From assembly GCF_018350175.1 (NCBI RefSeq), contig NC_058383.1, positions 40,672,001 through 40,736,000 of the forward strand: a DNA stretch of 64,000 nt, read 5' to 3'. The notes below the pieces were generated by a model. The model ran no database searches. It saw nothing but the letters and a program-made list of their open reading frames with translations, and was not told the DNA's origin. Origin of the DNA: Felis catus. Its lineage: Eukaryota. The position numbers and the translations under genes are program-made. This document shows positions 1,086 to 24,519 of this stretch, piece after piece. Position 1 is the stretch's first letter, and each line of letters opens with the position of its first letter.

Positions 1086-1123
1086 AAAGGAAGAAAGACA
1101 AAGACAAAAGAAAGTTCCATCCA

Positions 1124-1488: not shown

Positions 1489-1658
1489 NNNNNNNNNNNN
1501 NNNNNNNNNNNNNNNNNNNNNNNNNNNNNNNNNNNNNNNNNNNNNNNNNNNNNNNNNNNNNNNNNNNNNNNNNNNNNNNNNNNNNNNNNNNNNNNNNNNN
1601 NNNNNNNNNNNNNNNNNNNNNNNNNNNNNNNNNNNNNNNNNNNNNNNNNNNNNNNNNN
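1489..1658. other. Assembly gap (170 N)
   Basis: Run of N. Confidence 1.
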
Positions 1659-2234: not shown

Positions 2235-2427
2235 GGGGCACCTGGGTGGCTCAGTTGGTTGGGCGTCCGACTTTGGCTCAGGTCATGACCTCACAGTTCA
2301 CAAGTTCAAGCTCCTCATCGGGCTCTGTGCTGACAGTTCAGAGCATGGAGCCTGCTTTGGATTCTGTGTCTCCCTCTCTCTCTGCTGCGCCCCGGCTCAT
2401 GCTCTCTCTCAAAAATAAATAAATAAG

Positions 2428-2458
<31 letters not shown>

Positions 2459-2460
2459 AA
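2235..2460 (+). mobile_element. Can-SINE with (TAAA)n tail
   Basis: SINE head at 2235 and a (TAAA)n tail at ~2415-2459. Confidence 0.92.
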
Positions 2461-2532
2461 TTGTTAAAGCAGCTATTACAACTATACTCAACTGAGTAAT
2501 GGAAAATAGGCTTTCATGAATGGGGATGTAGG

Positions 2533-2534
<2 letters not shown>

Positions 2535-2578
<44 letters not shown>
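2535..2578. repeat. (AC)n microsatellite
   Basis: About 22 uninterrupted AC units. Confidence 0.98.
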
Positions 2579-2581
<3 letters not shown>

Positions 2582-2634
2582 TATAACCAAGTTTTAGAAA
2601 TGGCAAACACGCGATTTGGAATTTGGAATCACAG

Positions 2635-3035
2635 GATGAGCTTTATAACAAGATCAATCACTTCCAATTGAGACTCAGGTAGCAGCTCCTCAGTTGCACG
2701 GTTAAATGGGTTTTGAAATGTGGAAATTTCCTTTGCGAGAACACCGAGGAGCTGTAGTTTGAACTCAAAACATACAGCCGCTGCCGATGCACAGAGGAGT
2801 GGGGAGCCTGCTTCTCGTTTCAGCTTAGACAGCATGGGAAGCATGTGACCCGCGTCCTTGCGATTCACATAACGTCATTGGTTGAGATGGCAGTAACGTG
2901 TGTATGTTTCACATACAAATACTTCTTTCCCTTGTAATTTGAGGTTAAAAATCATTAAGAGACATGATCAAGTCTGAAGCAAAAATTAAATTGCAAAGCA
3001 ATTCAGTGTTCGATGATTTAGGTCAAAGGAGGTTC
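2635..3035 (-). mobile_element. Fossil hAT (Charlie/GTF2IRD2-like) transposase fragment
   Basis: Minus-strand peptide ISTFQNPFNRATEELLPESQLEVIDL resembles the FQNPF...LQLEVIDLQ motif that precedes the hATC dimerisation domain. AT-rich and decayed. Confidence 0.55.
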
Positions 3036-3136
3036 TTCACAGTGAATACAACAAACAGTGGATTGTACACTTCAAATGGGTAAGTTGTATGACATGGGTA
3101 TTATATCTCATTAAAGCTATGTTTTAAAAATAGGCC

Positions 3137-3345
3137 GGGGCACCTGGGTGCCTCAGTTGGTTAAGCATCTGACTCTTGATTTCGGCTCAGGTCATGATCT
3201 CACGGTTCGTGAGTTCAAGCCCCGCATTGGGGTCTGCACTGACAGTGTGGAACCTTCTTGGGATTCTCTGACTCCCTCTCTCTCTGCCTCTCCCCCCTGC
3301 TCATGCTCGTGCTCGCTATCTCTCTCTCTCTCTCTCAAATAAACA
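3137..3345 (+). mobile_element. Can-SINE
   Basis: Typical head, CT-rich segment and A-rich tail. Confidence 0.9.
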
Positions 3346-3409
3346 AGCATTTAAAAATAGACTAGAGTAGAACAGAATAAAACCAAACAAAATAAAAAAC
3401 AGGCCAAGG

Positions 3410-5370
3410 CACGAATATCTAGTAGGAAAAGGACCATCTGTTCAACAAACGGGGATGGGACAACTGGACAGCGACATGCAAAAGAGAGAAATTGAACCAC
3501 TCTCTTACATCACACACAAAAATAAACTCAAAATGGATGAGAGATCTAAATGTGAGACCTGAAACCATAAAAGTCCTTTAGAGGAGAACACAGGCAGTAA
3601 CTTATCTGACATGGGCTGTAACAACTTCTTTCTAGACATGTCTCCTGAGGCAAGGGAAACAAAAACAAAAATAAGCTATCGGGACCTCATCAAGATAAAA
3701 AGCTTCTGCACAGCAAAGGAAACAATCAACAAAACTAAAAGGCAACCGACTGAATGGAAGAAGACACTTGCAAGTTACATATCCAATAAGGGGTTAGTAT
3801 CCAAAATACAGAAAGAACTGATACAACTCAATTCCAGAAAACCAAATAATCCAATTAAAAATTGGGCAAAGACATGAACATTTTTCCAAAGACACCCAGA
3901 TGGCCTCCAGACACATAAAAAGATGCTCAACATCCCTGATCATCAGGGAAATGCAAATCAGAACTCCAGTGAGGGACCACGTCACACCTGTCAGAATGGC
4001 TAGACTCAACAACATGAGAAACAACAGTGCTGTCGAGGATGTTGAGAAAGGGGAACCCTCTTGCACTGCTGGTGGGAATACAAACCAGTGCAGCCAGTGT
4101 GGAGACCAGTATGGAGGTTCCTCAAAAAGTTAAAAATAGAACTACCCCCCCCCGGGGGGGCATCTGGGTGGCTCGGACGGTTGAGTGTCCAACTTTGCCT
4201 TGAGTCATGATCTCACCGTACATGAGCTCTAGCCCCACATCTGGCTCGCTGCTGTCAGCACAGAGCCCGCTTCATATCCTCTGCCCCCCTCTCTCTCTGC
4301 CCCTCCCCTGCTCACACTCTCTCTCAAAAATAATAAATAAACATTAAAAAAAATAGAATACCCCCAGTCCAGTAATCACACTACTGGGTATTTACCCAAA
4401 GAATACAAGAACACTAATTAAAAAGGATACGTGCTGCACCCCAATGTTCACTGCAGCATTATTTACAATAGTGAAATTATGGAAGTGCCCCAAATGGCCA
4501 TCGATACATGAATGGATAAAAAACAGGTGGTGTAGGGGCGCCTGGGGGGCTCAGTCGGTTAAGCGTCCGACTTTGGCTCAGGTCACGATCTCGTATTTCG
4601 TGAGTACGAGCCCCTCGTGGGACTCTGTGCTGACAGCTCAGAGCCTGGAGCCTGCTTCGGATTCTGTGTCTCCCTCTCTCTGCCCCTCCCCCACTTGTGC
4701 GTGCTCACTCGCTCTCTCTCAAAAACAAATAAACAAATTTTTTTACAAGAAGAGGTGGTGTATATAGAGAATGGAATATTGCTCAGCCATTTAAAAAAAA
4801 ATACGAGATCTTACCATTTGCAACAAATGGATAGGGCTATAGAGCTAGAGGGTATGATGCTCTGAATGAAACAGTCAGTTGGACAAAGACAAATACCATG
4901 TGACTTTATTCATACGTGCAATTTAAGAAACGAAACAAATGGGGGCGCCTGGGGGCTCCGTCGGTTACACATCTGACTCTTGATTTCAGCTCAGGTCATG
5001 ATCTCTCCGTTTGTGAGTTCAAGCCCCGCACGAGGCTCTGTGCTGACAGCTCAGGGCCTGCTTCGGGTTCTCTCTCTCCCTCTCTCTGCCCCTCCCCTGG
5101 CTCATGGTCTCTCTCTCAAAATAAATAATTAAAAAAAAAAAGAAACCAAACAAATGAAGGGGGAAGAAAGAGAGACAAACTAAGAAACAGACTCTCAACT
5201 ACAGAGAACACACTGACGGTTAACAGAGTGGGTGGCGGAAGTCAGTGCTGGGGGTGAAGAGCCCACTCGTCATGATGGGTAGCAGGTGACATGTGGGATC
5301 GTTGGATCACTGTACCGCGTGTGCAAAACTGACATCACGCTGTATGTTAACTCCACTGCACTTAAAACAT
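3410..5370 (+). mobile_element. Older carnivore L1 3' portion (ORF2 end and 3' UTR), interrupted by three Can-SINEs (~4157-4345, 4534-4745, 4941-5140)
   Basis: ORF2 remnants (DLIKIKSFCTAKETINKTKRQPTEW; [16 protein letters not shown]; MFTAALFTIVKLWK) are split by SINE insertions. Confidence 0.9.
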
Positions 5371-5379
5371 AGATCGATC

Positions 5380-7010
5380 ACTTAAAGAGGCTAAGGATTT
5401 GAACAGACACTTCACAAAAGGTGTGTGAATGGCCAGTCAACACATGGGAACGTGTGGGGACAACAGTGGTCCGACATCACCCACCGCCCAGGGAAACGCA
5501 AATCAAATCCGTGTGACACTAGCCCACCTGAGCGAGTCAGTTGGAAGGGACTGACAGCGCTGAGCGTTGGCAGGCATACGGAGCAGCCGAACGGTCACAC
5601 GCTGCTGGTGGACACGCGTGCCAATGCCGTCACTTTCGTCTGGCGTTTTCTTTTCTTTTTTGGGGGGAGACACCGAATCCGAAGCAGGCTCCAGGCTCCG
5701 AGCCGTCAGCACAGAGCCCGACGCGGGGCTCGAACTCACGAACTGCGACATCATGACCTGAGCCGAAGTCGGACGCTCAACCGACTGAGCCACCCAGGCG
5801 CCCCTCATCTGGCGTTTTCTTAAGACGTTAGACATACACCTCACTGCGCGATTTGGTCACTCCACTCTTAAGTAATGGCTCCAGAGAGATGAAAATGTAC
5901 ATCCACGCAAAGAACAGTCACAGTAGCTCTATTCACAGTAGCCAAAAATGGGGAAAAGCAATTTTCCACCAATAGATGAACGGACAGACTAAATGTGGTC
6001 TGTCCATCTGGCAACAAGGAAGAACAAGGCACTGACACGTGACGAAACGATGAGTTTCAAGATCATGCTGAGTGAAGAAGCCGAGGGCAAAGAGAATATA
6101 AAATCTTTGTAAAAACTTTAAAATGCAAGCTAATCTATTATAACAAACAGCACATCTGCGGCTGCCTTCAGCCAGGCAGCTGCCCCCAGGTTAGGGATTC
6201 CTGTTCAACAGGGAGTAACGAACACAAAAGTGCAGTGGAGACGTTCTGCATCCTGGTTGCGGTGGTGGCTTCATGGGTGTGTACGTGCCAAGGCTCTTTG
6301 GATGGTACACTTTAAACAGATGCCTTTATTGTACATAAATTGCACAATAAAATGGATTTCAAAATCCACAGCCTAACAAGCGTTGGCAAGGATGCGGAGA
6401 AGCCGTTCCCTCGTGCACTTCTGGTGAAAACGTTCACTGGTGCAGCCACTGTGGAAAACAGCCTGGCAGCTCCTCAGAAACTTAAACCCAGAATGACCAC
6501 ACGACCCAGCAATTGAAGATATGCACCCACAAGACTTGAAAACAGTAACTCAAACAGACTTTGTACACCCATGTTCACAGCAGCCGAGAGGCGACAAGAC
6601 GCCAAGCGCCCATCGGCAGAGGAACGGTGAACAAAGCACGTGGACCGTCCACGGTGGCATATATGACTCGGCCACGGAAGGAATGGAACGCACGCTCCAA
6701 CGTGGACAGGCCTCGAAAACATGGTGCTCAGTGGAAGCAGCCAGATGTGGAAGGACAAACATTCCCTCTTTAGGCAACGTCCAGATAAGGGAAACGCATC
6801 GAGACAGAAAGCGTAACAGGGACTACCAGGGGCTGGAAGCGGGGAGGGGAATCACTGTTTAAAGAGTGCAGAATGTCCGTTTCATAAAAAGTTCGGCTGG
6901 AAGTTGACGGTGGTGATGGGTACACAGCATTGTGAGTGTACCTAATACCACCAAGTCATACGCTTAAAGGTGATTAAAAGAGTAAGTTTTATGTATATTT
7001 CACAACCATA
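5380..7010 (+). mobile_element. Old L1M-type 3' fragments containing a short minus-strand Can-SINE (~5648-5803)
   Basis: Degenerate L1 ORF2-end and 3' UTR motifs. The SINE is flanked by the target-site duplication TC(G/A)TCTGGCGTTTTCTT. Confidence 0.75.
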
Positions 7011-7195
7011 AAACATCAACAGCGTTCATTCATGTCAGCAATAATAACAAACTTAGTAGAAAAGTAATCCTTTCTGATAACGATGAGATCCACAAAGTCT
7101 CTAGAAATCAGCCTAATAATGCAGAGAACAACCCAGCAGGATAATGCTATCAGTGCTCCTAAAATTGTGCTGTACAATCGGATCCTATTTTTAAA

Positions 7196-7418
7196 AAAAT
7201 TTTTAACGTTTATTTATTTTTGACAGAGAGAGACAGAGAGAGACAGAACATGAATGGGGGAGGGGCAGAGAGAGAGGGAGACACAGAATCGGAAGCAGGC
7301 TCCAGGCTCCGAGCCATCAGCCCAGAGCCTGCTGACGTGGGGCTCGAACTCACAGACCACGAGATCATGACCTCAGCTGAAGTTGGACGCTCAACTGACT
7401 GAGCCACCCAGGCACCCC
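7196..7418 (-). mobile_element. Can-SINE
   Basis: Reverse complement of a full SINE, with the T-rich tail on the left. Confidence 0.92.
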
Positions 7419-9129
7419 AATCGATCCAATCCTATTAAAGATTAAAATACGAGGTTTTTTTTTTTCAGGAATGTAACGATTTTATTTTAAAAATAAAGAG
7501 AAGAAACATCCGTGACGTAAGAAGACAAGTTCCTGGATACTAAGACAAAGCCACGCATAATGAAGTTAGGAACAGACAGCGGGGGCAGGCACGAGACGAC
7601 ACAAAATGCCCCCGTGTGCACGCAGGGACTGCTACCAGCAATGGCGGGGAAAGGGACAGTCCGTGGGACAGGTGGGGCAGGGAAATGAGGCCCCTTGCCC
7701 GCATGGCAGACAAGCCGGGTACCAAATTCAGTAAGACCTGCGTACGGCAGAGAACACTCTAGGCACATAGAAGGACCTGGACTGAGGAGTCGCGAAAGAT
7801 GCCCAGACCCAAACAGAAACTACCTGCTGATTGTGGGTGAGTCTGACTTCACCAGAATGAAGGATTCCCGTTCCACAAACAATTGGCAGTTAGCAGGCAG
7901 GCGTCAAACAAGGAGAGGGACAGCCGAAGCCTAGAAGGGCCCGAGGCTCAGTGAGTACCTAGAACGGGGGAGAACGGGAGCCCCTGTGACCACAGAGATT
8001 CCAAGTCAAGCAAGGAGATGGACAAAACTAGAAAGGTGGGGGGTAACGGGTGTTGGTGACCATGTGAGGGACGGCCCGACGGCGGACACCTGGAACGAAG
8101 CTCCCACCCCCCCACCCTGGCAACCTGGATGTGCCTTCGTTTCTGGTCTCCTCCCAGCGCTGCTCAGCTCCGCGTTTTGCAAGTTGCGCTCAGGCGTGCA
8201 GCTGGCTTCTCCTTCCTCATGCACGACCTCCGTTTGTCCTTCCTCTCTGTCAGGGGTTGCCCCCAGGCTATTGCTGGCCTTGTCACTCTCTGGGTGAACA
8301 AAACAAATGTGGGGCTGCTTATTCTGCACAAAAAGAAAAGGCCTTTTTTCTCCCGTTCACAGGACTAAATCTGTTCCTCATCAGGGAGGGCATCCGGTCA
8401 CGACTAAGCAGTCGGGTGAACGGTCACTCCTGGTTTGATCGCTGGTGTGGACGCACTTCCGTCTAATCTGATCAGCTCCATGGGTCCAAGGGTGGGTGGC
8501 CAGGTTCCCTGGCAGGACCCACGTCCTGGCACGGCAGGGTCCGCGCCCCGAGTTCAGTAGGCTGTCTCCAGTCCGGTTTCTCGAAACACCTGTTCCCCAG
8601 CGCGGGCAAAATAACAAAAAGAACCAGACTAGGTTGGCCTGGAGCCTGGAGCAGACCTGCCACGGGTCTCTACACCAGGTGGCCTCTTCCAGGAAGCCTT
8701 CGTCGGCTGGCAGTCTTCCTGACTCTGAGAGGTCAGCCCCTTTCTCCCTGAGCCCCTGTTTCCGCCCTGACGCCAGTCCAGAGCAGAATATTCATTCTGT
8801 GAATGAAGACCCACCGCAGATGGCTTTTTACCTTTTTACAGAGAAGGAAACTGAGGGCCAGAGAGGTCCGATGACTGACCAGAGCCCACGTAAGAGTCAG
8901 GTCTCTCGGCTTTGAGAGAGGAGTGTGGGGACGGTTCTGGTGTCAGGCACCCCCGGGGCGACATTCTCGCTCAGCCACTGCCCTGCGAGCAGGTTCCAGG
9001 GCCTCGGTTTCCCGCTTTGCCGGGTGGCACTTGCCGGGGGTGGCTGCATGCCTGCAGCTGGGCCCCAGCCTCAAGGAAACGAGAGGGCCCCTTCCTGCCC
9101 CCCAGAACTGGCCAGGTCCAGTAGGTGGC

Positions 9130-11820
9130 CAGGGATGTTTCCCTTTGCCGCTGTGTCCCTGAGGCCATGGGGACTGCAGCCACAGGAACCAGTGACCCAG
9201 CCCAGCTGGCCTGAGGCAGACGTGGGGGGGGGGGTGCTGTGGCTATTCACCCGGCTGATGTCCCCTGCCCTGCTGAGCCTCACCTCTGCTCACAGCTATA
9301 GACCTGCTCACGGCCACCAGCTGGGTGGCCGCTCGTCTTCTTGGACATTCCGATGGTGTCCGTGAGGGCCAGGGCTGAGGCTGCCAGCACCACACTCTGC
9401 GTCAGCCAGGCCTAGGGGCTCCTTGTATGTTGTGGCTTCCCAGGTGGGCTGCAGGGGCTGGAGAGACGTCACCAGAGGATCTGTTCCGGTCGGGCCCTGC
9501 CCAGCCCTCCCGCCACCCCCTCTCACGAGTCCACACCATCGTCCTGGAGGCTGTGGTCCACTGCCTGGGGCCAGAGCTCACACCATGGCCATCACTGAAC
9601 TCAAGGACGGGTTCCAAGGGCCACTGACCCTCTTCCAGGCTTCGGTGACTCCCGTCCCAGTTCACTTACTACTCTCAGTGGAGGCCCACGTGCATGCTCC
9701 CAACAGGGGCAGGGCTGTGGGCAGAGCTGGGACTGCTTCGTCCAGGGGTGGAGGACACGGGCCAGGTCCCAGGGAGGGGGGAGTGGGCCAGGACCAAGTT
9801 TGACCTGAATGCCCACCTGCATGCTGCTGCTGCCACTCCAAGCCCTGAGCGATGAGGCCCAGTGGAACCTGCGAGTGTCCCCATGGGCCACCGTGGTACT
9901 GGGATGGACTGCTGGGCTCCCAGAGCCTCCCCCGACCATCAGCCCTCCCCCAACATAATTTGCCTGGATACGACCTTGATGCCTTCTCAGGGGAGCAGAG
10001 GAAGCTCACGCACAGCTAGATGTGGGGACCCAGCATGGCACAACAGTATCAGGGAGAGGGGGCAATCCTGGGGCTGACCCCAGGTCTCTACTTGGGCCCT
10101 GCTGACCCTGACCCAGCTGGCTCCACTGGCCGAGATGAGGGCCAGCCCCGCCCAGACACTCCCGGGCTTCCTTTGCAGGCCCACTGGCATCTGTGAGTGG
10201 TGTCCTGGGTCAGAGGGCACAGGGGAGATGGAACTGCCACTTGCCCAGCTGACCCCTGTTCCCCAGGCCCGGCGAACGAGCGTTGCCCCGGCCACCTCCC
10301 CCTGGACCTCCCCTGCTGCCACATGGGACCTTCAGGGCCAGCACAGCCAGGACATCACGCTCTGGTTCCAGACTCACCTGCTGCCCTTCCTGCTGGCCAC
10401 GGCTGGTGCCATCCTGGCCCTGCTCCGGGGGGATGTCTTCCGTGATGCCTTCCAGCAGATGTAGGAAAAGGTGGGGGTGGGTGGCCCCGGTGCTGAGTTG
10501 GGTAGGGGGCGCCTGGGCAGTGACCCCACCCCTGTGCTCCAACCCCCGAGTGAGGGGCCGCGACGGTGTCTTCCAGCTGCTCCTGGTGCTGGCTCCCCAC
10601 AGCACCAGTGGCCTCTGCAGAACCCTCCTGGCATGCAAGGCATCTGGGGGTGAGGGTCAGCAGCACGCAGGGCTACCCTCACTCTGACCCCCCACCCCAG
10701 CACTGTTCGCGTCCCTGGGCGGTCACTGGGAGCAGATGGGCAGAACTTGCCTCCCCCGCAGGGAGCTGAACCACAGTGTGGGCTAAGGACATGCCCGCAG
10801 GGACCCTCACGCTCAGACGTGGCCACGTGCTCCAGGGAGACTGCGTCTTTCCGACCGAGCACCTGCTATGTTGGGACCAGAGGCTCGGTGTCTCGAGCAC
10901 GGGGAGGGAGGAGTGAAGCCAGCTGGGCTTTGGAGTGGGACAGGTGCCTCCCTGACAGCCAAACTGAAGGGCAATGCCCACTTCCAGGCCCAGGTCCCAG
11001 ATAGGCCCGCCAGCCCAGCTGGCCACCTCCTTCATGGCCTCAGGCACCATCACCCAGGAGCTGACCGTGGACCAGGCCCTGGACCAGCTCTCTGTGGAGC
11101 TCCCCGGGTCAGTCAATACTGGCCTCTGGCCTCCACATGGCAGGTGTCCTGGGCCTGCTCGGAAGCCACTGCAGCCAGGGCATCTGGGGTGACCTGTTTC
11201 CCCTCCCCACCAGACTTGGCCTGTGGCCTACTTGGCCCCACCGACTCCAGGTCTGGTCCCTCCTCAGACCCCTGGCCACCCACAAGGATCCTACCGCACG
11301 TCAGGACAGCTTCCAAGGGCGAGTGACCGGGCTCTGGCAGGAGCTGGCTCACCTGGCCATCAGAGGGTGAAAGTGCTTCCTCACTGTTCTCTGGCTTCGA
11401 TACATCCCCACCTCCCAGTGCCTCCTGCAGTCAGGGTGACCGCTGGGAGCAGTGGTCCGGATTGGGATGACAAGGACCCTAAGGTACACGGGGAAGTCAG
11501 GGCTGCCCAGGGTGGAGGTGGCCCCAGGTCACTTCCTCCATGCCACCACAGAAGGGAAAATGAGGCCGAGATGGAGAGATGAGCCGGGACCTCGGGGAAT
11601 CGAGCCGCGGCTCTCACAGGTCACAGCCACGTTAGAGTGTCGTCCGGGCAGTGGTGGAGCGGACCCTGCCGTGAGCCCTTCTGTTCTGCAGAATGGCTCC
11701 CCTACCCCATCTATACCAAGGCAGTGGGCTCCTCCCTCCCAGTGCCCCCAGCACAAGAAAGACCTTATCTTCTACGGAGTGTGGGGGACTCCCCCACTAC
11801 TCCCAGCTGCTACAGCCCAG
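9130..11820 (+). pseudogene. Decayed multi-exon gene with an internally repeated exon cassette; putative mesothelin/stereocilin/otoancorin-superfamily relic
   Basis: Exon-like segments bounded by pyrimidine-tract AG and GT sites (10084-10192, 10267-10460, ~10549-10649, from 10701, from 10988, 11692-11820). Peptide motifs recur about three times and are disrupted by frameshifts. The family assignment is inference. Confidence 0.55.
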
Positions 11821-14267
11821 GTGAGCTAGAGGCCGTCCCCAGAGGAGACTGGCAGGGCAGGAGCGAAGGGAGCCTGGGATGGGTCTGCTGAAGAGTGCCG
11901 AAACGTCAAGAGCTGAGACGTCTCAGGCTCGGCTCCGAGGCCCAAAGCACGGGGTCACCCGCCCACAGGCAGTGGGCCAGGCCTGACCTCACGAACCAAT
12001 TACAAACCTCACACAGACAAAACCAAGTGGGCTTCCAGGTTCCTGGTCCTCCAGTCACCGTGCTGGTCAAGCCCCCTGAGCTATCCCGGGGGGTGCTGTC
12101 CGAGCCGGCCCCACCTGGAGCTCCATGGAACACCTTGGAAGGTGCTGGGGAGGGGTTCTCCCGGGGCCGTGGGGGCTAGGTGAGGGTTGCCGGCAGAGTG
12201 GCCACGGCCAGGGACGGTGGGGGGGGGGGGACACAGAGATGAGTTAGGAGGGAGCTCAGATGTGGCAGCAGGGTGGGGAAAATGCCACATCCCCCCAAAG
12301 AAGGAGCCCCAGAGGACCAACCTGGTGCTGCCGATCGGCCAGATGTGAACACGGACACGTGTGTGATCCCCGACCCCGGGGAGGTCTGGATGGGTGGCCC
12401 TGCCCGCCTCTGAGCCTGTCATCTTCACAGGGCCAGGCCAGTGGGACCCGCTTCACCCGACCAGGGGTTCCTGGACTGGTCAGCCCGCCGTGAGCATGGG
12501 TGTGGCCGGCAATGGCCGAGGGGGCTGCAGGTACAACACGTGGAGGGACTGCCGGGTGGGTGGGCTGCAGAGCCGAAGCACGTGAGCACCAAGGGTGCGT
12601 GGGCCCGGAGGCCTGGGGGCTCCTGAGGGGGCCCCGCACCACCCAGCAGTCTCAGCTCTGCCTCCAGACACCCCAGATGGCCCCCTTGATGACTTGGGGG
12701 CTGACTACAAACTGCAGACGCAGAGGCAGCTCAGGGCCAGGGGGAGAGTGCCACAAACGAGCCCCACAGCCCGCCCCCAGAGAGTCGCCTCGCTCCCCCC
12801 ACCCGCTCCCGCTCCGAGCTGCATGCCTCGAAGCCTGACCAGCCTCAGGCGCGCCCTCCAAGAGTGGACTGTGCCCCAGGCCACACTTCCTAGGCCACAG
12901 CCCAGAGGCCCAGCCACAGAAAGTGGCCGGCCACGTCCCGGGGCCTTCCTGGCGCTTTCTGGCACCTGGTCAGGCAAAGGGGGCTTCCTGCCGGCGCGCC
13001 CCCGCTGAGACGGCTTCGGCGTCCAGGGCTGAAGCGGAGCCAACCTCCCAGACCTAGGGACACGTGTGCAGCAGTGAGGCCATGTGGCCGACCAGCTCTT
13101 TCTGCTGCTTCCTGCGCCGGGTGGGTGTGGAGGCAGGACCCTGGGAGCCCCAGCGCTCTCTGTGTGACCCTCCCCCCTCAGGCCCGCACCGGTCTCTCCC
13201 GAGGAGGAACAGGTCATGGCAGGCGTCCTCATTAGCTACTAATTGCAGCCCGTTCCCGGCCTCCCCGGGCCGTTGCCGGATTACACCTGTTGACAAGATG
13301 TGGCGTCCCCAGCGGGAAGGCGCGTGTGCTGATTATGCCGCTAATGATGTGTTCATTGCCCACGGTAATTTCCTTCAACAAATAAAACGCTGTGTCTGCT
13401 CAGCCTAGGGACACTTCTGGCTTCACGAGGAGCCCGGCGTGCACCTGAGGGTGGGGAGGGCTGGTGGGCTCCGAACGGGACACCTCAGGCCACCAGGGAA
13501 GTGTCCCAATCCAAGCACCAGACGAACTGCCCGCAGCGCCTGCGTGTGCTCCTAAGAGAGACTGCTTTCTCTCTCGATTCTGAGCATAAGGGGCACTGGG
13601 TCCCACCCTGACGCAGACCCTCCCCGAGTGGGCTCTTCCTTTGCCCTCCCTCCCCACACCCCAGCCCAGGGCCCAGAGAGCCTCCCAGGTGAGTGGAAGG
13701 TTTGCAGGGACTGGCCTGGAAGGCTGTGCCCCCACACCCACCGAGACAGGGCAGGAGACCCATGATCCTCAGGGACCTGGGCTGATTTACTCAGAAACTC
13801 CTGAGCACGAAGGCCCTCACGTGGGAAGGAGACCCCTCAGTGGCCGCCCAGGCCCACAAACAAAATAGTCCCCAGTTCACAAAAAGCACGAGAGCAGATT
13901 CCGAAGGCCAGAACCACTTGTTTGGGTGGGAGGCCGGCCTTGTTCTACCTGACCCCCCTCCCTACCAGGCAGGGGCTCCGCTGTACAGGGAGCCCCTCCG
14001 TGGGCCGTTTGCCCCTCCCCACCCCGGTGCCCGATGAGGACGCCAGGGCCTCTGCACCAGCCACAGTGTCCGGGTGGGTCCGGTGGGCAGACGGACAGCA
14101 CACGCACACGGGCCGCCCCTGGGCACACGCTCCTCCTCCTACAGCCATGCGGAGAAGGGGGAGCGGACCCCACTTCTCCTTTCCGACATCTTGGGGGGCC
14201 TTGATGCACGAAACAGTAACCCTGGAGAAGGTAGTGTTTTGAAATTACATTTTAAGAGAAAGTTAAA

Positions 14268-14378
14268 AAAAAAATTTTTAAGTGTTTATTTAGACAATCT
14301 CCACACCCAACATGGGGCTCAAACTCATAACCCGGAGATTAAGAGTTGCACACTCTTCTAAGCCAGCCAGGGGCCCCT
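14268..14378 (-). mobile_element. Older short Can-SINE (SINEC_c-like)
   Basis: Reverse-complement tRNA-derived head with a T-rich tail. Confidence 0.7.
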
Positions 14379-14930
14379 AAATTTTTTTTGGAAAAGACAA
14401 AGGCCGTTTACTTTTCCTGACCCTAGGTGGATGTATTCCTACAGCACACAGGCTGTCTGTCCCCGCCCCTCCAAGACCCTGCGGGACCAACCCTGGCTTT
14501 GCAGCACAGCAGGCATGGTCCGCCCCAGCCTCGCACCCCAGGGCCAGCGCAGTCATATGACCTGTGAGACGCATCACGTTATGCAGCTGTCCTCTGACCC
14601 TTGAGGGTCCCACAAAAGTTGGACATGAGGGCTCTGGCGGGTTGAACAGTGCCCCCCAAATAACATGTGCCCCAAACCCGTAAATGGGGCCTCGCTTGGA
14701 AATCGGGTCCTTGCTGAGGGTTAAGCTGAGGGTTTCGAGACGAGATCATGCTGGGAGGTAGGTTGGGCCCTGAATCCAGTGACAAGTGTCAGAAGACACA
14801 CAGGGTCCATGTGCTGATGAGGCAGATGCTGGGGAGATGCTGTCTTGTGCCCAGGGCTCCCCAGGGCCACCAGGAGCTGGGCCTGCTGACACCTTGGCCT
14901 CAGACTTCTGGCCTCAAGAACTGAGAGCGT

Positions 14931-15635
14931 GGGGACGCCTGCGGGGCTCAGTCGGTTGAGCGACCGTGGGAAACAGAACACCACAATAACCACAGGGGCA
15001 TATTCGTTCAGGCTCCAAGATCTCTGAGAAAGCTCGAGATCATAGGGTTAAAAATAATGCGAAAGAAATGGAGCGAAATGCCCTTGGGAAATGTGGCCTG
15101 TTCTCTAGTAGGAAGACAAGGATGTTTTGCTTAAAGGAAGCCAGCTGTAAATAACACAGCGTGTTCACTCTCCTCTTTGTTTCTCATCCTGGCATAAAGA
15201 TTCCTATCATAGCCTACGTATCTGCAAGAAAGCCTTTGCACGCAATGGCAACGTACGTTTGTGCTTTAGCTGAACCACATGTCCTTTGTTGCCACGCCTT
15301 ACTAACCTTCTACAGTTAATCGTCGTGGATCTGTAGCTCTGTAAAAGTATAAAAGAAGATGTACAATAAACCTCGGGGCCTCGGGCGGTTGGCTCGGGGT
15401 CCCCTGTGCCTCGCTATACTGTCGTCTTTTTCTCGGCTCCTTCACCGCCCCAGGTCCACGGCCCAAAGAGGTCGGCAAGCGACCAACTCTTGATCTCAGC
15501 TCAGGTTATATGATCTCACAGCTCGTGAGATCGAGCCCCGCGTCGGGCTCCCTGCTCACAGCACGGAGCCTTCTTGGGATTCTCTCTCTCATACACACAA
15601 TAAATAAACATTTCAAAAAGAAAGAAAGAAAAAAA
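14931..15635 (+). mobile_element. Can-SINE inserted in the MLT1 and itself split by a solo LTR
   Basis: SINE head at 14931-14964 continues at 15478-15635 and ends in an A-rich tail. Confidence 0.85.
14965..15477 (+). mobile_element. Solo endogenous retrovirus LTR (513 bp), probably class II/ERVK-like
   Basis: 6-bp target-site duplication AGCGAC (14959-14964 and 15478-15483); ends (C/T)GTGGG...GGCA; TATAAAA at 15348 and AATAAA at 15365. Confidence 0.8.
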
Positions 15636-16259
15636 CTAAGAGAATAAACTTCTGTTGTTCTAAACCCCCCAGTCGTGGTCCTAACGTCAGGCGGGTTCCT
15701 CAGACGGTGAAACTCTGATGTGCGTCTGCTCCCACCCAAAGATCTGGTGGCCAGCTTTGGGCAAAGGGGGTCCTGGGGACACATCCAGAGCAGAGGCCAA
15801 GCCCTGCTCCTGTCCCAGCTCAGGGAGAGGGGTGCCGACACCCAGGCACAGCATCGCGGCCGCTGCCCAGGCTGGCTACGGGGCCCACGGCCTCTCAAGT
15901 CCTCAGCTGGCCCTCCGTTTCCCCCACGTGTGTAAACCCCGGCACACGGGAAGCGAGCAGTAAATACTAATGATGATGAAAGAATCTGCAGGTGTGGGAG
16001 CAGGTGCACAGAGGAGGTGCACGCAGCGTCTGCTCAAGAGCCCCAGGTCTCCAGGGACGGGGCTGCGATTGAGTAAAAGACCCTCGAGGGGCCCTTGTTG
16101 TGTGAGTGTGTGGGTGATATCAGAGATCCCCAGTCAGGTTGTCTGAACCAGAAACCGTCGCCCAGGCACGGCACGGGGACGCTGGGACCGATGGTTCGAT
16201 GCTAGGCCAACCTGGGTGCACTCAGCGTCCGGACCTCTTGAAGCTACCTTGGGGCAGCC

Positions 16260-16760
16260 AGTTTTATTGAGATATAGATGCACATGCCATAAAATCTGCC
16301 CACTTAAAGGGTGCAGTTCAGTGATTTTTGATATATTACATTAGTAGTTTTCAAATTGTGGTAACATACCTACAACAAAAGTTGCCATAGCAACCCTTTT
16401 TAAGTGGCATTAGTTACAGTGTCGGGCAAAGATTACCTTGCTTTCCAAAACTTTCTCGTCACCTCACCCTGAAGCCTCCTCCGGGCCCCTGGCAACCTCC
16501 AATCTACTTAACATCCCTGTGGAGTTGCCTATTTCACGGGCTTCATAGAAATGGAATCCTACGATAGGTGGCCTTTTGAGTGGCTTCTCTTGCCGAGCAT
16601 CATGTCACCAGGGCTCATCCACACGGCTTTACAGCTGAGTCCTCGCCCGTCTACCCACTCATCTGCTGATGGTCGCGTGGGCTCTTCCACTTTCGTCCAC
16701 CCCCACCCTTTGCTCCACTTGGTTCGCTCCCACAGACTTGGGTTCCAGGGGAAGGAGGCA
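16260..16760 (-). mobile_element. Old L1M 3' fragment
   Basis: Reverse-strand L1M 3' UTR motifs (TTTATTGAGATATA..CATAAAAT; GGCAACC..CAATCTACTT..; ATGGAATC). Confidence 0.7.
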
Positions 16761-17479
16761 GGAAGCCCGCCCTGCAGGGACCCTGGCTCTGCACACCTAC
16801 GGGCTGCAGCCCCCCTTTCCAGCGTCAGGAGAACCCTCCCTGTCCCCCCAGCCTCAGCCAGGGCCCCTCCCGTGTAAATCCTCTCCACCACTCCTAACGG
16901 GCCCTCATTCCTGGCCCCCATCTCAATGCCATTGTTACTCTCACGAGTCTTTTGTAAACCTACTCTGGGGCATTTCGGTGAAACTAAGGTTGGTTGGGGG
17001 CTCGCCCACTTCTAAGAATCGCTTAGGACTGTTCAGATTTCAGGAACCGTATCTCAGACCTGGGTCAGGTATTGTCAGGACAGGGGACGGGTGGCGCCTG
17101 GGGGCCTGGAAGCGGAGCTCCCGTAGCTGCTACGGAAAGCCTGCCCCAGCTGTTGTAGAAGAAAGTCCTGTCTTGGCAGCCAAGAGGAGCAGCTGCAGGG
17201 GCCCGAGGACGCTGCCCCCGCCGGTGGACCTTGGGTCCCTGGGCCTCGAGGAAAACCCACAGGCAGGTGTGGGAGTCAGCAGCACTCAAGTCCACACTGG
17301 GCTAAGTACTGCAAGGAGACTGGGAGCACAGGCCAGGCTGGGCCCTCAGAAACACGAGATGAACACCGGGCCGTGCCAGACTCAACTCCTGCAGGTGTCT
17401 GGAAAGCCCCACTAAAAAGGGGTCAGTAGTGGCAGTAAAACTGGACTCGACACGATTTATAACGGCCCAGGGCCGAGCC

Positions 17480-18560
17480 TGGCCAGCAGCAGTCCCGCGT
17501 CGCGCTACCAAACCTTACAGGGAAACGGCGCTTTCCCAAGCTGGTCTCCAAAATGACAGAAGAGGGTGTCGGAGCCCGTGAGAGAAGCTCCGCACGGAGC
17601 CGCCGAGTTGTGGGGAGCGCTGCCCGCCCTGTCACTTCCATTTCGCTCGCTCTGCAACAGGAACTGCACGCCCAGGGGGGGGCCAGGCGCCCTTCTGGGG
17701 TCTCGAGCGCCTCTGCGACCAAGTATAGCAAGGCCGCTGCCTCTGCAAGCTCCCAGGGCAAGGACTCAGGGCCGCATATCCCGCCGGCAGTGAGCCCTGG
17801 GTGAGGGAGGCGACACTGTGGTCCTGGCGGCCCCTCCGAGGGAGGCGACACTGTGGTCCTGGCGGCCCCTCCGCCCGCGCTCAGGAGGCCGGGAAGGTGA
17901 CACGCTCCCTCGCGGCACGGGCCCCGCCGGCAGGGGGCGCGCGGCCCGGGGGGACGCGGATGCGCATGCGCCAGGCGGGTCGCTTTCCGGCAGCGTGGCG
18001 GAACAGTCCCGCAGTTTCGCGCCGCTTGGCGACGTCGGCGCCCCGCGCCCAGCCGCAGTACGGCCGCCATGGCGTCGCCCTTCAGCGGGGTGCTGCAGCT
18101 GACAGACCTGGATGATTTCATCGGACCGTCTCAGGTGGGGCGGCCCGGGTGGGTGGCGGCCGTGCCTGGCAGGGGGTGAGGGGGGGGGGACTCCCCTCCG
18201 CTCGGTTTCTTTCCCTGAAAAACGAGATCGGAACCCAGACTCCCCGCCCGCGTCCCCCCGGGCCTCTGGCGCTCGGGCTAGCTTCCTACCGATGGGGACC
18301 CGAGGCCAGGGATGGAGGCGCCCCGAGCCGGGTTCCTGTGCCGCGAGGCGAGGCGAGGCCAGGTCACCAGCCCGCAGCGCCCAATAGGACAAGTAGTTTC
18401 GGGTCATCACGCTGTCCTCGGCGCGACCGGGGGACGGGAGTGCCGAGTGGGCAGCAGGAAGCGGGAGGGAGCCGGGCAGTGGCGGGCTCAGGACTGAGGC
18501 CGGACGAATCTGTCCGCTTATTCTGGTAGACGGGGGCGGGGAATGATCCCATCTCAGTTT
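17480..18560 (+). promoter_or_regulatory. CIAO3 CpG-island promoter
   Basis: CpG dense; NRF1 palindrome TGCGCATGCGC at 17961-17971; CTCF-like CCGGCAGGGGGCGC at 17927-17940; ETS-like TTCCGG/CGGAA. Confidence 0.85.
17803..17872. repeat. Perfect 35-bp tandem duplication
   Basis: GAGGGAGGCGACACTGTGGTCCTGGCGGCCCCTCC occurs twice (17803-17837 and 17838-17872). Confidence 0.97.
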
Positions 18561-21500
18561 GGAAGGCAGGGGAGTAGGTCCCTTGGAATCACGTACTGTG
18601 ACTGGGGGGGGGGGGGGGGCGGTGGTCGTCCTAGGTGCTGGTTTGGGGAGGAAGACAGAGCTTGCCCCTAAAGGGGACAGGTCAGGTACACTTGAAAGCG
18701 GGAGGCGGCCTTCTCTGGTGTAGCTGCCTATCAACTGCACTGGCTGCGCAGGACACACAGGGCTGGGAGGGGGAGGGCATGGGGCTGGTCACAGCTCCGA
18801 GGTCAGGGATGAGCTTGAACAGGGCCCCCCCACCAGGGCTTTCTGGGGCTGATCATCTCTGGGAAGGGAATGGCCAGAGAGACTCTTGTAGTGACGGCGA
18901 GAAAGGGCAAGAACTCGAAGTTGAAGAGAAAAAGAACATTTCACTGGGCAAGGCGGGGACTCTGCAGAAATGGTGATTCCTGGGCGTCCTCTTGGTAGCC
19001 AGGGTAACACTGGCTCTCCATGTGTGGCCGCACCTTCGGTTTGTGCTGAACGGAGTAAAGGTCAGGGCTGGTGGTGCCCGCAGGTGCCTTAGTACGTAGG
19101 CCCAGCTAAGGCCACCTTCCCCTGACTGAGCTGCAGAGTAGGCCTCAGTGCTGGCAGGGGTTAGAATGTGTGCCCCTGTGCAAGCAGGGTGACAGCTGTA
19201 TTGCCATGACTGCTGCTGTGGCAGGAAGAGAGTCGGGCAGCACCCCTGTCCTATGTGGTGGTCCCCTCCTCTTCGGTAACTTCCACACACTCGGGCCCCC
19301 ACTTGGGGTCTCTTCCTGGTACAGGATTGCATCAAGCCCATGAAGGTGGATAAGAGGTCGGGAAGCGGCGTGGCCAAGATCCACATCGAAGACGATGGCA
19401 GTTACTTCCAGGTCACTCAGGTAAGTTCCAGCCCAGATGACCAAACACCTGTTTTTGCTGCTCCGTCCAGTCACAGGTACAGAGATCATGGGACCTTTCG
19501 CTGTCATCAGAGTGGTCAGATTCACTGTCATCACGGCTGGGAGGGCAGAGATGGTGCCTGGGGTGGTGGTGGAGGGGCACAGAGGCAGAACATGGAGCTG
19601 TGGGGGGGGGGGCTCTTTTTGCAGATGGTGGTTCCTGTCTTCCCTTCCCTCTCCCCCACCGCCACCATGAGTTCTAATTCTGTAAGATTTTCCAGTTAAG
19701 GACCCCCTGGGCGGCTCAGTTGGTTAAGCGTCTGACACTCTCTTTTTATTTTTTTATGTTTATTTTTGAGAGAGAGAGCGAACTTGAGAAGGGGAGGGGC
19801 AGAGAGAGAAGGAGACACAGAATCGGAAGCAAGCTCCAGGCTCTTAACTGTCAGCATGGAGCCTGATGCGGGGCTTGAACCCACAAACCGTGAGGTCCTG
19901 ACCTGAGCCAAAGTTGGCCACTTCACAGACTGAGCCACCCAGGCGCCCCAACCAATATTTAATTTTTAAAAGTTCAGTGGCACACAAAGCCAGCCTCCTA
20001 CCACATTGGTTGTCGGTGTTGTGAGCCAGAGAATAAAGGCTTCCTGCAGGTTCCATTATGCTGAGTGCTCGTGTCCTTGCGTAGAGGCCCTCTGAGTCCC
20101 GAGTGCTTGTGCTTTCCAGGATGGAGGGACCCGGAAGCTGGAGAAGGCCAAGATCTCGCTGGATGACTGCCTGGCATGCAGTGGCTGTGTCACCTCGGCA
20201 GAGACCGTGCTCATCACTCAGCAAAGCCACGAGGAGCTGCGGAAGGTTATAGATGCCAATAAGGTAAGTGAGGGGCGTCTTTGAGACTTTTTTAACCTGA
20301 CGTCAGCCCCGGTGTCCTTTGCTCTTGCTGCCAAGGGCAGCCCATCTGGTGCCTCCTGCCTCTTGTAGGTGTCGTCGGCAGGATGCCCGTGAATTGCTGG
20401 TCAGGATTTCACACCGGGGTGTGGGGCCCTGCGTGTACATGGAAGCGACACGCCCTGCCGGAGGCAGCACGCACTCCCCCAGCACTGGCCCCCTGGGAGT
20501 CTGTAAAACACAGCGAGTGAGCATGTGTCCTCTGCTTTGCAGACGGCGGCCCCCGGTCAGCAGAGGCTGGTTGTCGTGTCCGTCTCGCCCCAGTCCAGGG
20601 CATCACTGGCTGCACAGTTCGGGCTGAACCCTACAGACACTGCCAGGAAGCTGACTGCATTCTTTAAGAAAATCGGTAGGCAGCAGACCTCGCGTGCGTG
20701 CTGAGCTCAGCGTGTGCGGGGTCCAGCGAGGGGCTCCTCCGGCCTCTGACTCACTGAACTCAAACGCATCAGAAACTGTTCTGAGTTGACTTCAGTATGA
20801 AGTTTGGGTTTGACAAATGAGAGCTGAGCCTTTTAAGAGGCAGCCATCTGAATCGTGGCTGTCCTCCTCCAGTCTGGAATTCCTGGAATTCTCTGGAATT
20901 TGCTCCCCCCTGTATTGTTTTTAAACTATCACCCTCGAGGCCCGTTTCCCTGGTCCCCTGTCACGCTCTGGCTCCCAAAGACTTTGGTCGATCTCTGTGA
21001 GCCAGGAGCAGGCCTGGGAGGACATGGGGCGGGCACAAGAGGTGTGGCCTAGCCCGGACAGCCGCTGTGCAGACAGCTGAAGCGCCCCTGGAAAGTGGCG
21101 TCCCCGCTCCCAGGGGCGTGATCGGGGCCTTGCAATGTAGCCACACTTCGTGGCGGTGAGGCGGGTGCTTGTGTTGCAGGGGTGCACTACGTGTTCGATA
21201 CCTCCTTCTCGAGGAACTTCAGTCTCCTTGAGAGCCAGCGAGAGTTTGTGCAGAGATTCCGAGGACAGGCCGACTCCCAGCAGGCCTTGCCTGTGCTTGC
21301 GTCCGCCTGCCCAGGTGTGTTCACGCTGCGGGACACGGGGGACAGGAACGCTGGGTGGGGCCACACGAGGCTTCTGCCACAATGGCTGCCTCGGCAGAAG
21401 GAGCTGCCCTGAGAGCCACCTGGGGTCACCGAGTTCCCCAAGACTGTGATCTCACAGATGCTAGAAGCACACGGCAGTGACAGCAGAGTAGGGACATTCT

Positions 21501-24500
21501 TTAACGGGACCAAAACTCCCCGTACAAGCCGGTGCACCCCAGAAGGTCACGCCACTCCCTGCCCAGCTGCTCAGACACCCCGTTTGTTCCCCGTGTCGGC
21601 CTCAGGCTGGATCTGCTACGCGGAGAAGACGCACGGAAGCTTCCTCATCCCCTACCTCAGCACTGTTCGGTCCCCACAGCAGGTCATGGGCTCCCTGGTC
21701 AAGGACTTCTTTGCCCAGCAGCAGGTAACAAGAATATCCCAGCTGTGAACGATTCACTGCCATTGTTCTCAAAGATGAGCCAAGACCTCCGATGTCTACA
21801 TGGCCACACGAGGCATCTCGGTCCCATCCTGGCCGCTGGCCGGCTGTGTCCCAGGCCGCGCCTGTGATGTCACCCCCCACCTTATCCTGCGGGCTCCTTT
21901 ACTATCAGGTCAGGCAGCGACTTCACATTTCCACATTTCCCCGCAGCATTTGACCCCGGACAGGATCTACCACGTGACGGTCATGCCCTGCTATGACAAA
22001 AAGCTGGAAGCTTCCAGACCAGACTTCTTCAGCCAGGACTACCAGACTCGTGATGTGGATTGTGTTGTCACCACAGGTGTGGGTCCCACGTAGTGGTATT
22101 GCCCGGGTCCTGCCCGCAGGCTCTGGCTGGAGCTGCCAGCCCCTATGCATGAGGCAGCTGGTGGCCCTCCCCTGGGTGCCAAATCAGACCTCACAGCTGT
22201 TCCATTGTCTTGGGGGACGTGTGGCAAAAGGGCCGGGTGTTTGCTCTAAAACAGTCTGCGTGAAGAGGCGGGTGGGGATTCTCGTCATCCACTCTGACTC
22301 ACATGGGCCAGTCACCCCATTTTTGAATTGAGCAGCCTCACAGTCTCCCAAGTGCTTAAAATACAGAAAAGAAAATGCTCAGGAACCCAGACAGTGGGGT
22401 GGGGAGGGGCCCCCCTGCATGAACACATGCCCCTCTCCACCTCAAGGGGAGCCACGACCACACTGCGGCGGGTCCGGGGATGGGTATGTCCACCCCCCGC
22501 CACACTGCTGGGAGGGTGGAGGGTGGGCTGCGGGTCTGGGGAGCTGGCTGGCTCTTCTGAGGGTCCTCAGAAGTGGAGTCCTTCCTCGCCTCAGTGGCCA
22601 GGTTGGCCCTCCACCCATAAGCCAGGAGGTGGACATCCGGGTCTCTGGAGCTAAGGTACAGGTTGCCAGGGATGCAGATGACGCGGGTTTCCTCAGCGTT
22701 CTGTTTTGATTGAGATCTCAGCTGAAGCGCCCCTGTGCTGGGGTCTTACCGTAGGAGAAGTCTTCAAGCTGCTGGAAGAAGAAGGGGTCTCACTCTCGGA
22801 ACTGGAGCCAGCCCCCCTGGACAGTCTGTAAGTCACCACCCACTGCAGCAGAGGGGAGAATGTGAATCCAGCGTCGGGGAGCTCGACGTGTGGGTTGGGG
22901 GGTTGCAGGCGCACTGGCAAGCAGCAGCAATGAGGGCGTGGGGGTAGACGGTCCCCAGATGGACCTCAGCTCTGCGTCCCCTCCCTTCCTCTTCTCCACC
23001 GTGACTTCCTCCTAGCCAGGTCCGCGTCCGCCCTGTCGCCGGTCTCAGTGCACACAGAGGTGGTCAAGTTCATGACCTGGCCAACGGACAGTGCACTGAT
23101 GGTCATCAGAGCTGTCCCAAACTTGACACACGTCTGAGCTCCCCAAATAGGTGACTCAACAGAGGAACGATTTCTCCCACCTGAGCTTCCTCTTGACACG
23201 CAGACAAAGGCCCTGGGGGTTCTGGACTCCTCTCCCATCTAGCAAGCAGCTCCCTCACATGGGAGAGACAAAAGGTCTCACCCGAAAGCTCCCGCTGCCA
23301 CCGAGGCCATGCTCTGCTCCCCAGGTGCAGCAGTGTGTCTGCCCAGGAGCCCAGCAGCCATCGGGGCGGGGGCTCAGGGGGCTACCTGGAGCACGTGTTC
23401 CAGCACGCAGCCCGGGAGCTCTTTGGAATCCACGTGGACGAGATCACCTACAGACCACTGAGGTCAGTGGGAAGGGCTGGAGCATGGGGACAGGGCAGCA
23501 GGCTGGGGTGGGGGAAGACCCAGGGCACCAGCCCTCCTCTCCCGCTCACGTGAACCGGCCTCCCCACCCAGCGGTCCGCGTCCCTGCCCACACCCCAGGG
23601 GGTGAGAGCCCCAAGGCCACGGTGGCGCGCCTGGCACAGGGTGTGTCCCGACACGATGCTCCCTTCCACGGAGGGAGGGCCGGGGGCTTTGTGCGACCTC
23701 GCCACGCCTCACGGCCATTCTTGGGAGGGAGGATCAGGACACTGAGGCCCCCTGCCTAACGGCGGAAGCGAGCTTTCTACCCTGTCCTTGCATCCCTGTC
23801 CTCCACGTCCTCCACCGAGGAGCCGGTTAGGTGGCAGACGTGCCTGCAGGGGCAGGTACCGAGGGAGCCTGGCCTGTGCTCCCCCCAGGAACAAGGACTT
23901 CCAGGAGGTGACCCTGGAGAAGGAGGGCCAAATCGTGCTGCACTTTGCCGCGGCCTATGGCTTCCGCAACATCCAGAACCTGGTGCAGAAGCTCAAGCGA
24001 GGGCGCTGCCCGTACCATTATGTGGAGGTCATGGCCTGCCCCGCAGGTAGCTGGGGTGGGGCCTGCTTCTCCCAGAGGGCACGGGGGCCCTTTCCAGGAC
24101 CAGGGCTGTGGGCAGTGTCTCACCAGGGCAGGAGGGGTGGAGGCGGAGCCCGGGGGTCAGGAGGCTCAGGAGGGCCAGTGTTGGGAGGGGTCGTGCTGTG
24201 CTTCCCAACCCCCCTCCCCCACTCCCCGGTATAGGCATCCTCCCTGTCACCGTGCGCTCACCTGTCTTGCTCTGCTACAGGCTGCTTGAACGGCGGAGGC
24301 CAGCTCAAGGCCCCCAGCACGCCCGGCAAGGAGCTTCTCCAGCGCGTGGAGACGCTGTATAGCATGGTCAGGACAGAGGCGCCGGAGGATGCACCTGGCA
24401 TCCAGGAACTGTACCGGTGCTGGCTGCAGGGCGAGGGCTCGGAGCGTGCTGGCCGCCTGCTGCACACAAGCTACCACGCGGTGGAGAAGGCCAGCTCCAG

Positions 24501-24519
24501 CCTTGGCATCAGGTGGTAG
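18069..24519 (+). CDS. CIAO3: Cytosolic iron-sulfur assembly component 3 (NARFL/IOP1), [FeFe]-hydrogenase-like; 11 exons, 476 aa
   Basis: Exons 18069-18134, 19325-19420, 20120-20263, 20543-20675, 21180-21314, 21606-21724, 21947-22076, 22755-22827, 23325-23462, 23889-24046, 24281-24519. All GT-AG; 1431 nt in total. Starts [22 protein letters not shown]; Fe-S motifs [33 protein letters not shown]; terminal Trp. Confidence 0.98.
19700..19950 (-). mobile_element. Minus-strand Can-SINE (19742-19950) abutting a plus-strand SINE head fragment (19700-19741) in CIAO3 intron 2
   Basis: SINE head motifs are present in both orientations. Confidence 0.88.

Follow-up and report, generated by a model that had tools for sequence, protein, structure and literature searches.

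Mesothelin is a prominent target in tumours, yet little is known of what it does normally (PMC2628672); stereocilin and otoancorin belong to the mesothelin superfamily (PMC2628672). The closest relatives of the locus reported here are the long mesothelins of ray-finned fish, such as tuna LOC122998536 and paddlefish LOC121330804, in which a tandem array of helical repeats of about 196 residues, marked by a W-F-x-x-x-L-x-P-x-L motif, precedes the true mesothelin part. Mammalian MSLN and MSLNL (PF06060) match the C-terminal part of these proteins and lack the repeat. Here we analyse a stretch of 64,000 nucleotides (nt) of the domestic cat genome (Felis catus, contig NC_058383.1, positions 40,672,001 to 40,736,000; hereafter the window, in whose coordinates all positions are given). 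Upstream of CIAO3 it holds what would be about three decayed copies of the four-exon repeat unit of an mslna/mslnb-type N-terminal array. Judged from its sequence, this relic is very probably a non-processed (unitary-type) pseudogene of a long fish-type mesothelin repeat array in the MSLN-CIAO3 interval.

The relic has in common with the long fish mesothelins the repeat and its motif, in decayed form, and would also share with them a four-exon unit ordered D-A-B-C, in which the A exon spans 191-202 nt and closes in phase 2 while the D exon opens in phase 0; of this structure the A and D features are the better supported. Unlike them, it comprises about three decayed and frameshifted units, sits in a mammalian genome and has D exons of about 108 nt, compared with 126 nt in the fish locus L001. 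It lies in the same neighbourhood as mammalian MSLN and MSLNL, but has no detectable sequence likeness to the mesothelin domain, and its strand is opposite to that of MSLN if the two genes are arranged here as in human. Stereocilin and otoancorin resemble the long fish mesothelins in being long, helical and extracellular and in having a C-terminus like that of mesothelin; the Stereocilin Pfam model matched none of the six fish proteins scanned. A further comparison is offered by the unitary pseudogenes of genes lost in mammals, for example the vitellogenin relics: here too, remains of exons and introns occupy the syntenic site of a family whose genes are intact outside mammals.

Results

Homologues of the relic in ray-finned fish

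The frame at 10078-10461, which spans the exons D2 and A2 described below, was used as the query. A word-based homologue search with this open reading frame (ORF) scored none of 1143 candidates, and a phmmer search against 1.84 billion representative proteins returned five matches. One of these, P0001, is a 48-residue ORF from a close relative, 95% identical to the query, and another is tuna LOC122998536 (E 2.4e-8). The other three (P0002, P0004 and P0005) were dropped because their scores, judging by sequences and names, were summed over near-perfect tandem repeats. Searching from the tuna protein gave 109 family proteins, and an alignment-based search gave 150; among the 120 of these that were listed, all named ones come from ray-finned fish. 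Many family members are named mslna, mslnb or mesothelin-like and carry PF06060. In the Atlas the window ORF and a fish repeat have the same nearest clusters, which we take as leads, and clusters of stereocilin and otoancorin stand at 0.79-0.86 for both relic and fish repeat, with all values below 0.9. No metagenome DNA related to the window ORF was confirmed among 600 candidates; the sequencing runs listed (20 of 24 contain the stretch, four of these being recorded as RNA) are not taken as evidence of expression. A preliminary description of this DNA, made without database searches, had likened its motifs to repeats of large mesothelin-related proteins in non-mammalian vertebrates. That likeness holds for fish, the family being seen solely in ray-finned fish; the searches did not reach reptiles, birds or marsupials.

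Support for the principal exons

The family signal is strongest in A2 (10267..10460, plus strand), an A-type exon of 194 nt with a phase-2 donor that is the best preserved of the locus (WFQTHLLPFL), although its conserved Cys has become Arg. In tblastn, 60 of the 109 fish proteins match A2, and no bin outside it is matched by more than five. A hidden Markov model (HMM) of the repeat gave A2 15.4 bits, with a runner-up of 3.6 bits among the 3604 tiles of the window and a null maximum of 6.9 bits. When all 442 AG..GT pairs were scored as A-type exons, the best pair delimited exactly 10267-10460 (score 22.3; none of 2172 null pairs reached it, the highest scoring 2.3). The donor at 10461 is the best of 222 for an A-type end (0 of 2660 nulls) and interrupts the sixth codon downstream of the position of the conserved Cys, the same place as in L001. 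D2 (10084..10192, plus strand) is a D-type exon of 109 nt with a canonical AG and a GTGAGT donor, one base off frame; its acceptor is the best of 360 for a D-type start (1 of 4198 nulls, 0.09 expected), and its start is in register with the fish C/D boundary. Neither D2 nor A2 contains a stop codon.

Two exons outside the query are also recognised. A1 (9505..9706, plus strand) is an A-type exon with a one-base frameshift, a worn donor and Gly in place of the conserved Trp, and D3 (10988..11093, plus strand) is a D-type exon frameshifted after its sixth codon. With frameshift-aware exon profiles A1 reached 19.7 bits and D3 16.0 bits, each unmatched by any of 274 null tiles; the D2 score in the same test was reached by 18% of nulls. 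Both halves of A1 are significant in register, its acceptor at 9505 scored above all 2172 null pairs, and none of 4000 nulls equalled D3 in register. Support for a third A-type exon, A3 (11214..11405, plus strand; QDSFQGRV), is moderate. In the register chosen for it, 5 nulls out of 5000 equalled its core, and its DNA is, narrowly, the best partner of A1 among 1085 tiles and in register at the motif (p = 0.008), with the caveat that one cross-type pair out of 63 was just as similar. Its Trp has become Ser, an in-frame TGA stands at 11368, and no donor remains at the homologous place.

The composition of the exons and their splice signals point in the same direction. Over nine segments (255 codons) the content of guanine plus cytosine (GC) at codon positions 1, 2 and 3 is 0.675, 0.467 and 0.792, whereas the putative introns stand at 0.654. 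The third-position value (GC3) exceeds those of all 60 selection-matched nulls, and two CIAO3 exons have the same codon-position pattern with GC3 of 0.73 and 0.87. A blind tile scan picked A1, D2, A2, D3 and A3 in the same frames, with GC3 of 0.734 (1 of 60 nulls as high). Branch-point-like TRAC motifs precede 5 of 10 acceptors but 11.9% of 447 controls (p = 0.004). The phases of the unit are 0-2 for A, 2-1 for B, 1-0 for C and 0-0 for D; the A2 donor and the D2 acceptor agree with them exactly, and the B and C exons fit in size and signals without being significant. A first spliced alignment was discarded as too permissive, its path being nonsensical. The later spliced-chain run gave 29.3 bits, exceeded by none of 57 genomic controls and none of 40 Markov nulls.

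Several results weigh against the presence of a decayed repeat array. D2 and A2 found the family, which makes their own scores partly circular; for this reason the segments outside the query weigh most. The tuna E-value is a sum over eight repeated stretches, and because of this inflation the match was used as a lead; three of the five phmmer matches were unrelated tandem-repeat proteins, one of which outscored tuna. No tetrapod homologue appeared in the word-based, phmmer or tuna-seeded searches, nor among the 120 of 150 alignment-based matches listed. Subtype profiles separated the exons less sharply: out of 229 null tiles, one beat A2, three reached A1 and eight reached D3. The B and C exons were not significant in the unbiased profile, splice-pair and acceptor tests. 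The full spliced chain was not recovered: one run gave 29.6 bits with 2 of 28 genomic controls higher, and with A2 masked the later chain fell to 19.9 bits (4 of 57 controls higher). Finally, translated self-similarity, which a gene built of repeats had been expected to reveal in a self dot-plot, is at chance: the top off-diagonal score was 61, compared with 53-72 in 12 Markov nulls and 57-82 in six genomic controls. The recurrence of the exons, absent from this self-comparison, emerges only against an outside profile.

It is in this setting that the last of the competing explanations, a single chance look-alike at A2 with pattern-reading in GC-rich intergenic DNA for the remainder, has to be judged; the self-comparison, the null-level B and C exons and the empty Pfam scan of the ORFs are what it would predict, but A1 and D3 lie outside the query and above all nulls, the exon boundaries agree with fish, the codon-position bias is present and the family is the one expected from the locus, so that we regard it as largely refuted and highly improbable.

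Other exons and the decay of the locus

The remaining members of the array, all on the plus strand, are fainter. C0 (9106..9221) is a candidate C-type exon of 116 nt bounded by AG and GT, with the size and the 1-0 phase of a fish C exon; it is not significant (43% of nulls as high in the register test). D1 (9296..9400) is a worn, frameshifted D-type exon (IDLLT..QL) recognised by eye, and is absent from the significant matches of the profile, splice-pair and acceptor tests. B1 (9820..9915; LQALSDEAQ), which the preliminary description did not list, is a weak candidate B-type exon with worn splice sites (5 of 6000 nulls at a hand-picked register), and C1 (9943..10021) is a weak candidate C-type exon that came top of its tile in the blind scan with 9.0 bits, the null level. 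B2 (10551..10649; VRGRDGVFQLL) is a B-type exon with a frame slip at the acceptor and a phase-1 GTGAGG donor; 1 of 4000 nulls equalled it at the chosen register, but 67 of 4198 did so among all acceptors, which is not significant. C2 (10701..10818) is a candidate C-type exon with a good acceptor and no significant protein likeness. B3 (11721..11820) is a B-type exon of 100 nt that ends in ..SP followed by G at a GTGAGC donor, with an alternative acceptor before 11692, and is suggestive at most (67 of 1425 null pairs as high). Beyond it, at 12431-12545 on the plus strand, a good acceptor before 12431 is followed, after a frame slip, by W-L-V-S; this may be a C-type exon and is not significant.

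Re-reading the sequence recovered all the peptides quoted in the preliminary description at their positions, and its splice signals are present as acceptors before 9296, 10084, 10267, 10551, 10701, 10988, 11214 and 11692 and as donors at 10193, 10461, 10650, 11367 and 11821. Some of its exon limits have shifted: A1 more likely starts at 9505 than at 9530, B3 fits better from 11721 than from 11692, and A3 probably ran to about 11405, past the in-frame TGA. The recurrence of peptide types every 0.75-0.95 kilobases (kb) that it reported applies to D and A (0.76-0.95 kb) but not to the step from B2 to B3 (1.17 kb). As for its cassettes, A1, A2, D2 and D3 are above chance and A3 is moderately supported; B2, B3 and all C segments are at chance when taken alone.

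The multi-exon pseudogene that it had proposed is borne out by the exon boundaries, the frameshifts, the stop and the lost key residues, the motif Trp being gone from two of the three A exons. The intron-exon structure at the syntenic site, together with disabling frameshifts and stops, would class the relic as a non-processed pseudogene, and it is most likely dead. With this many lesions but most splice dinucleotides still in place, a rough estimate would be that neutral decay has gone on for tens of millions of years. P0001 changes frame relative to the window within A2, at 10320-10335; taken from its protein sequence alone, this points to a 5-nt indel between close relatives, the relative having five more bases, and may reflect continuing decay. 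The idea that the P0001 frame brings the 5' half of A2 back into register with fish was rejected as weak: two subtype profiles gave p of about 0.01 and 0.02, but the generic profile gave 0.36 and a third profile 0.20, over 12 residues.

Architecture of the long fish mesothelins

The fish proteins mslna and mslnb are tandem arrays of the helical repeat followed by the true mesothelin part. Among 196 fish proteins the number of units ranges from 1 to 20, with a median of 6, and the period is mostly 170-209 residues. No Pfam model exists for the repeat. In this family (P0003, P0006 and others) some species have near-perfect super-repeats of about 600 residues. The exon boundaries in two contigs are phase 1-0 for C, 0-0 for D (126 nt), 0-2 for A (191 nt) and 2-1 for B, and indels between fish isoforms agree with them.

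The C-terminal part of the fish proteins is true mesothelin (E 2e-52 to PDB chains). PF06060 was found on all six fish proteins scanned, spanning the last approximately 600 residues and starting at profile position 20-40 in five of them. The AlphaFold model of P0195 is all helical (mean pLDDT 81.6, pTM 0.47), and its residues 835-1117 match mesothelin with Z 18.0 and a root-mean-square deviation of 6.8 over 273 aligned residues. The repeat array of the same model, which was not folded separately, retrieved generic HEAT/ARM solenoids alone (Z at most 8.4) and no structural match to mesothelin. The repeat and post-repeat profiles gave no alignment (hhalign probability 0.5%), and none of 143 proteins has a repeat match past the last repeat; the array is therefore a separate N-terminal module without a counterpart in mammalian MSLN. 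The preliminary description had pointed to the helical repeats of the MSLN family; by these comparisons the repeat is not one from within the mesothelin domain.

Just before the part equivalent to mature mesothelin the fish consensus reads R-x-K-R, and R-x-x-R occurs within 16 residues of a loose anchor motif in 67 of the 129 proteins having that motif. Human mesothelin is cleaved by furin (PMC2628672); if the furin-type site of the fish proteins is used in the same way, the array would leave with the shed fragment. Salmon members of the family are reported from gill (PMC7316992) and from skin infested with lice (PMC12339338), while mouse Mslnl is reported from olfactory neurons (PMC4295871).

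A living gene of this kind would encode an extracellular, Cys-bearing alpha-helical solenoid. Because the fish array is N-terminal to the MPF-equivalent part and to the furin-type site, the ancestral product was most probably a large protein of the epithelial surface, either shed or secreted, and not a glycosylphosphatidylinositol (GPI)-anchored stub. The relic itself would now be without protein function.

Genomic neighbourhood

The stretch around the relic is GC-rich (64.6%), as had been described; it holds no tandem array, and no second copy of 8900-12600 was found within the window, while the flanks gave 112 and 8 repeat matches. A Pfam scan of the ORFs of the stretch found nothing, PF06060 included, and Rfam gave two matches over the interval, both sub-threshold. 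Downstream on the same strand, CIAO3 (NARFL) runs from start codon to stop at 18069..24519 and is identified by PF02906 (Fe_hyd_lg_C, E 2.8e-11). It is followed on the minus strand by two genes that we take from their N-termini to be HAGHL and ANTKMT, and further downstream by CCDC78 (DUF4472), an F-box/leucine-rich-repeat gene and a WD40 gene. MSLN lies outside the window, and MSLNL is presumably placed beyond MSLN, on the CIAO3 strand. The synteny of MSLN beside NARFL rests on human and chicken, the two fish contigs fetched being under 2 kb each: PMC6846653 has human NARFL and MSLN adjoining on different strands, and a table row of PMC12159700 lists RPUSD1, MSLN, NARFL and HAGHL for chicken. 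Together with the gene order of the window, these sources put the relic on the MSLN side of CIAO3, where it had been placed initially.

Upstream of the relic, at 400-8000, fragments resembling long interspersed elements and short interspersed elements (SINEs) are densely piled, with an assembly gap near 1490-1660; this pile would have covered any 5' exons of the relic. The SINEs of the window are similar to carnivore SINEs. At 14966-15477 an insert of about 510 nt, which we presume to be of the long-terminal-repeat (LTR) class, contains AATAAA and sits within a SINE, flanked by a 7-nt direct repeat. A degenerate tandem array with periods of 33, 50 and 101 nt occupies 44168-44356. At 13182-13400 on the plus strand a strong acceptor at 13181 is followed by AT-richer DNA that contains several copies of TAAT and, at 13381, an AATAAA; the segment may represent a terminal exon or else an enhancer under conservation. 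Part of it, 13328-13399, bears a weak likeness to the B exon in the final repeat of the fish array (1 of 162 null tiles as high).

A profile scan of both strands of 7900-18100 yielded no mesothelin-domain exon that we accept. The highest-scoring outside segment, 14248-14346, gave 22.5 bits (0 of 162 nulls) and was rejected because its match is rich in Lys and falls on an A/T run next to a SINE; 15033-15107 is part of the LTR-like insert, and the matches at 16918 and 13328 were each equalled by 1 of 162 nulls. Such an exon could have been deleted or have decayed, or it could be MSLN itself, outside the window. No signal-peptide or GPI exon was noticed on inspection by eye.

Discussion

As dead exons of fish-type repeats adjoin CIAO3, a lost piece of the mesothelin gene cluster is recorded at this site. 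How it came to be there is less certain than what it is. We lean, with somewhat better than even confidence, towards a remnant of a separate long or repeat-only paralogue, the other exons of which were deleted or buried under repeats. The suggestion of the preliminary description, a lost third member of the MSLN cluster, is thus plausible and unproven, and an inverted 5' half of a long MSLN explains the data equally with a single event; each of the two fits as a one-event history.

In the second history, which we consider possible but distinctly less probable, an ancestral long MSLN lost its 5' half, which is the relic: its repeat block was flipped by one local inversion, and MSLN survived as the C-terminal approximately 600 residues, its signal-peptide exon being a new or an alternative one. 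The PF06060 model covers the entire mammalian precursor and does span just the last approximately 600 residues of the fish proteins, no mesothelin-domain exon follows on the relic's own strand, and the relic is placed on the NARFL side, where the 5' half of MSLN would be, the two genes being neighbours on opposite strands (PMC6846653). Mammalian mesothelin with the shed MPF may then be the surviving C-terminal third of a giant fish-type surface protein, and the relic a fossil of the event that created short mesothelin, with the ancestral form perhaps intact in some marsupial, monotreme or reptile; we hold this, too, to be a minority possibility. The relic lies, however, on the CIAO3 strand, so that an inversion must be assumed; no breakpoint was found, and MSLN lies outside the window. 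A1 and A2 moreover fit mid-array repeat subtypes best, and not the last repeat, and the fish clusters include repeat-only gene models (53 of 196 proteins lack the last-repeat motif, many of them perhaps fragments).

It is improbable that the exons are still in use, either in an unannotated spliced transcript (a long non-coding RNA or a short ORF) or in a gene that is intact in related mammals and was recently broken here. Many canonical splice sites and branch-point motifs survive, D2 and A2 are free of stops, and the acceptor at 13181 with the AATAAA at 13381 could close a plus-strand transcript. Against this, most exons carry lesions, including the loss of the Trp from two of the three A exons and of the Cys from A2, the frame of A2 differs in a close relative, and no intact mammalian protein was found among the 1.84 billion representatives at E up to 0.001.

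A literature search, which did not extend to subscription papers or genome-browser annotations, returned nothing on the relic or on the repeats of the long fish proteins, and the main text of PMC3296468 makes no mention of mesothelin, although its supplements, also outside that scope, could list this loss. The relic is apparently an unreported pseudogene. Since the sequence is most likely dead, it reveals no new mechanism. It adds a gene loss, probably an unreported one, and points to an unnamed extracellular helical repeat of about 196 residues that no Pfam model covers. The relic indicates that ancestors of this mammal carried, at the MSLN locus, a giant repeat array of the fish type, which was later lost, roughly tens of millions of years ago if the lesions are a guide. 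Because the relic records that ancestral array, the origin of short MSLN and MSLNL may be tested by comparative genomics.

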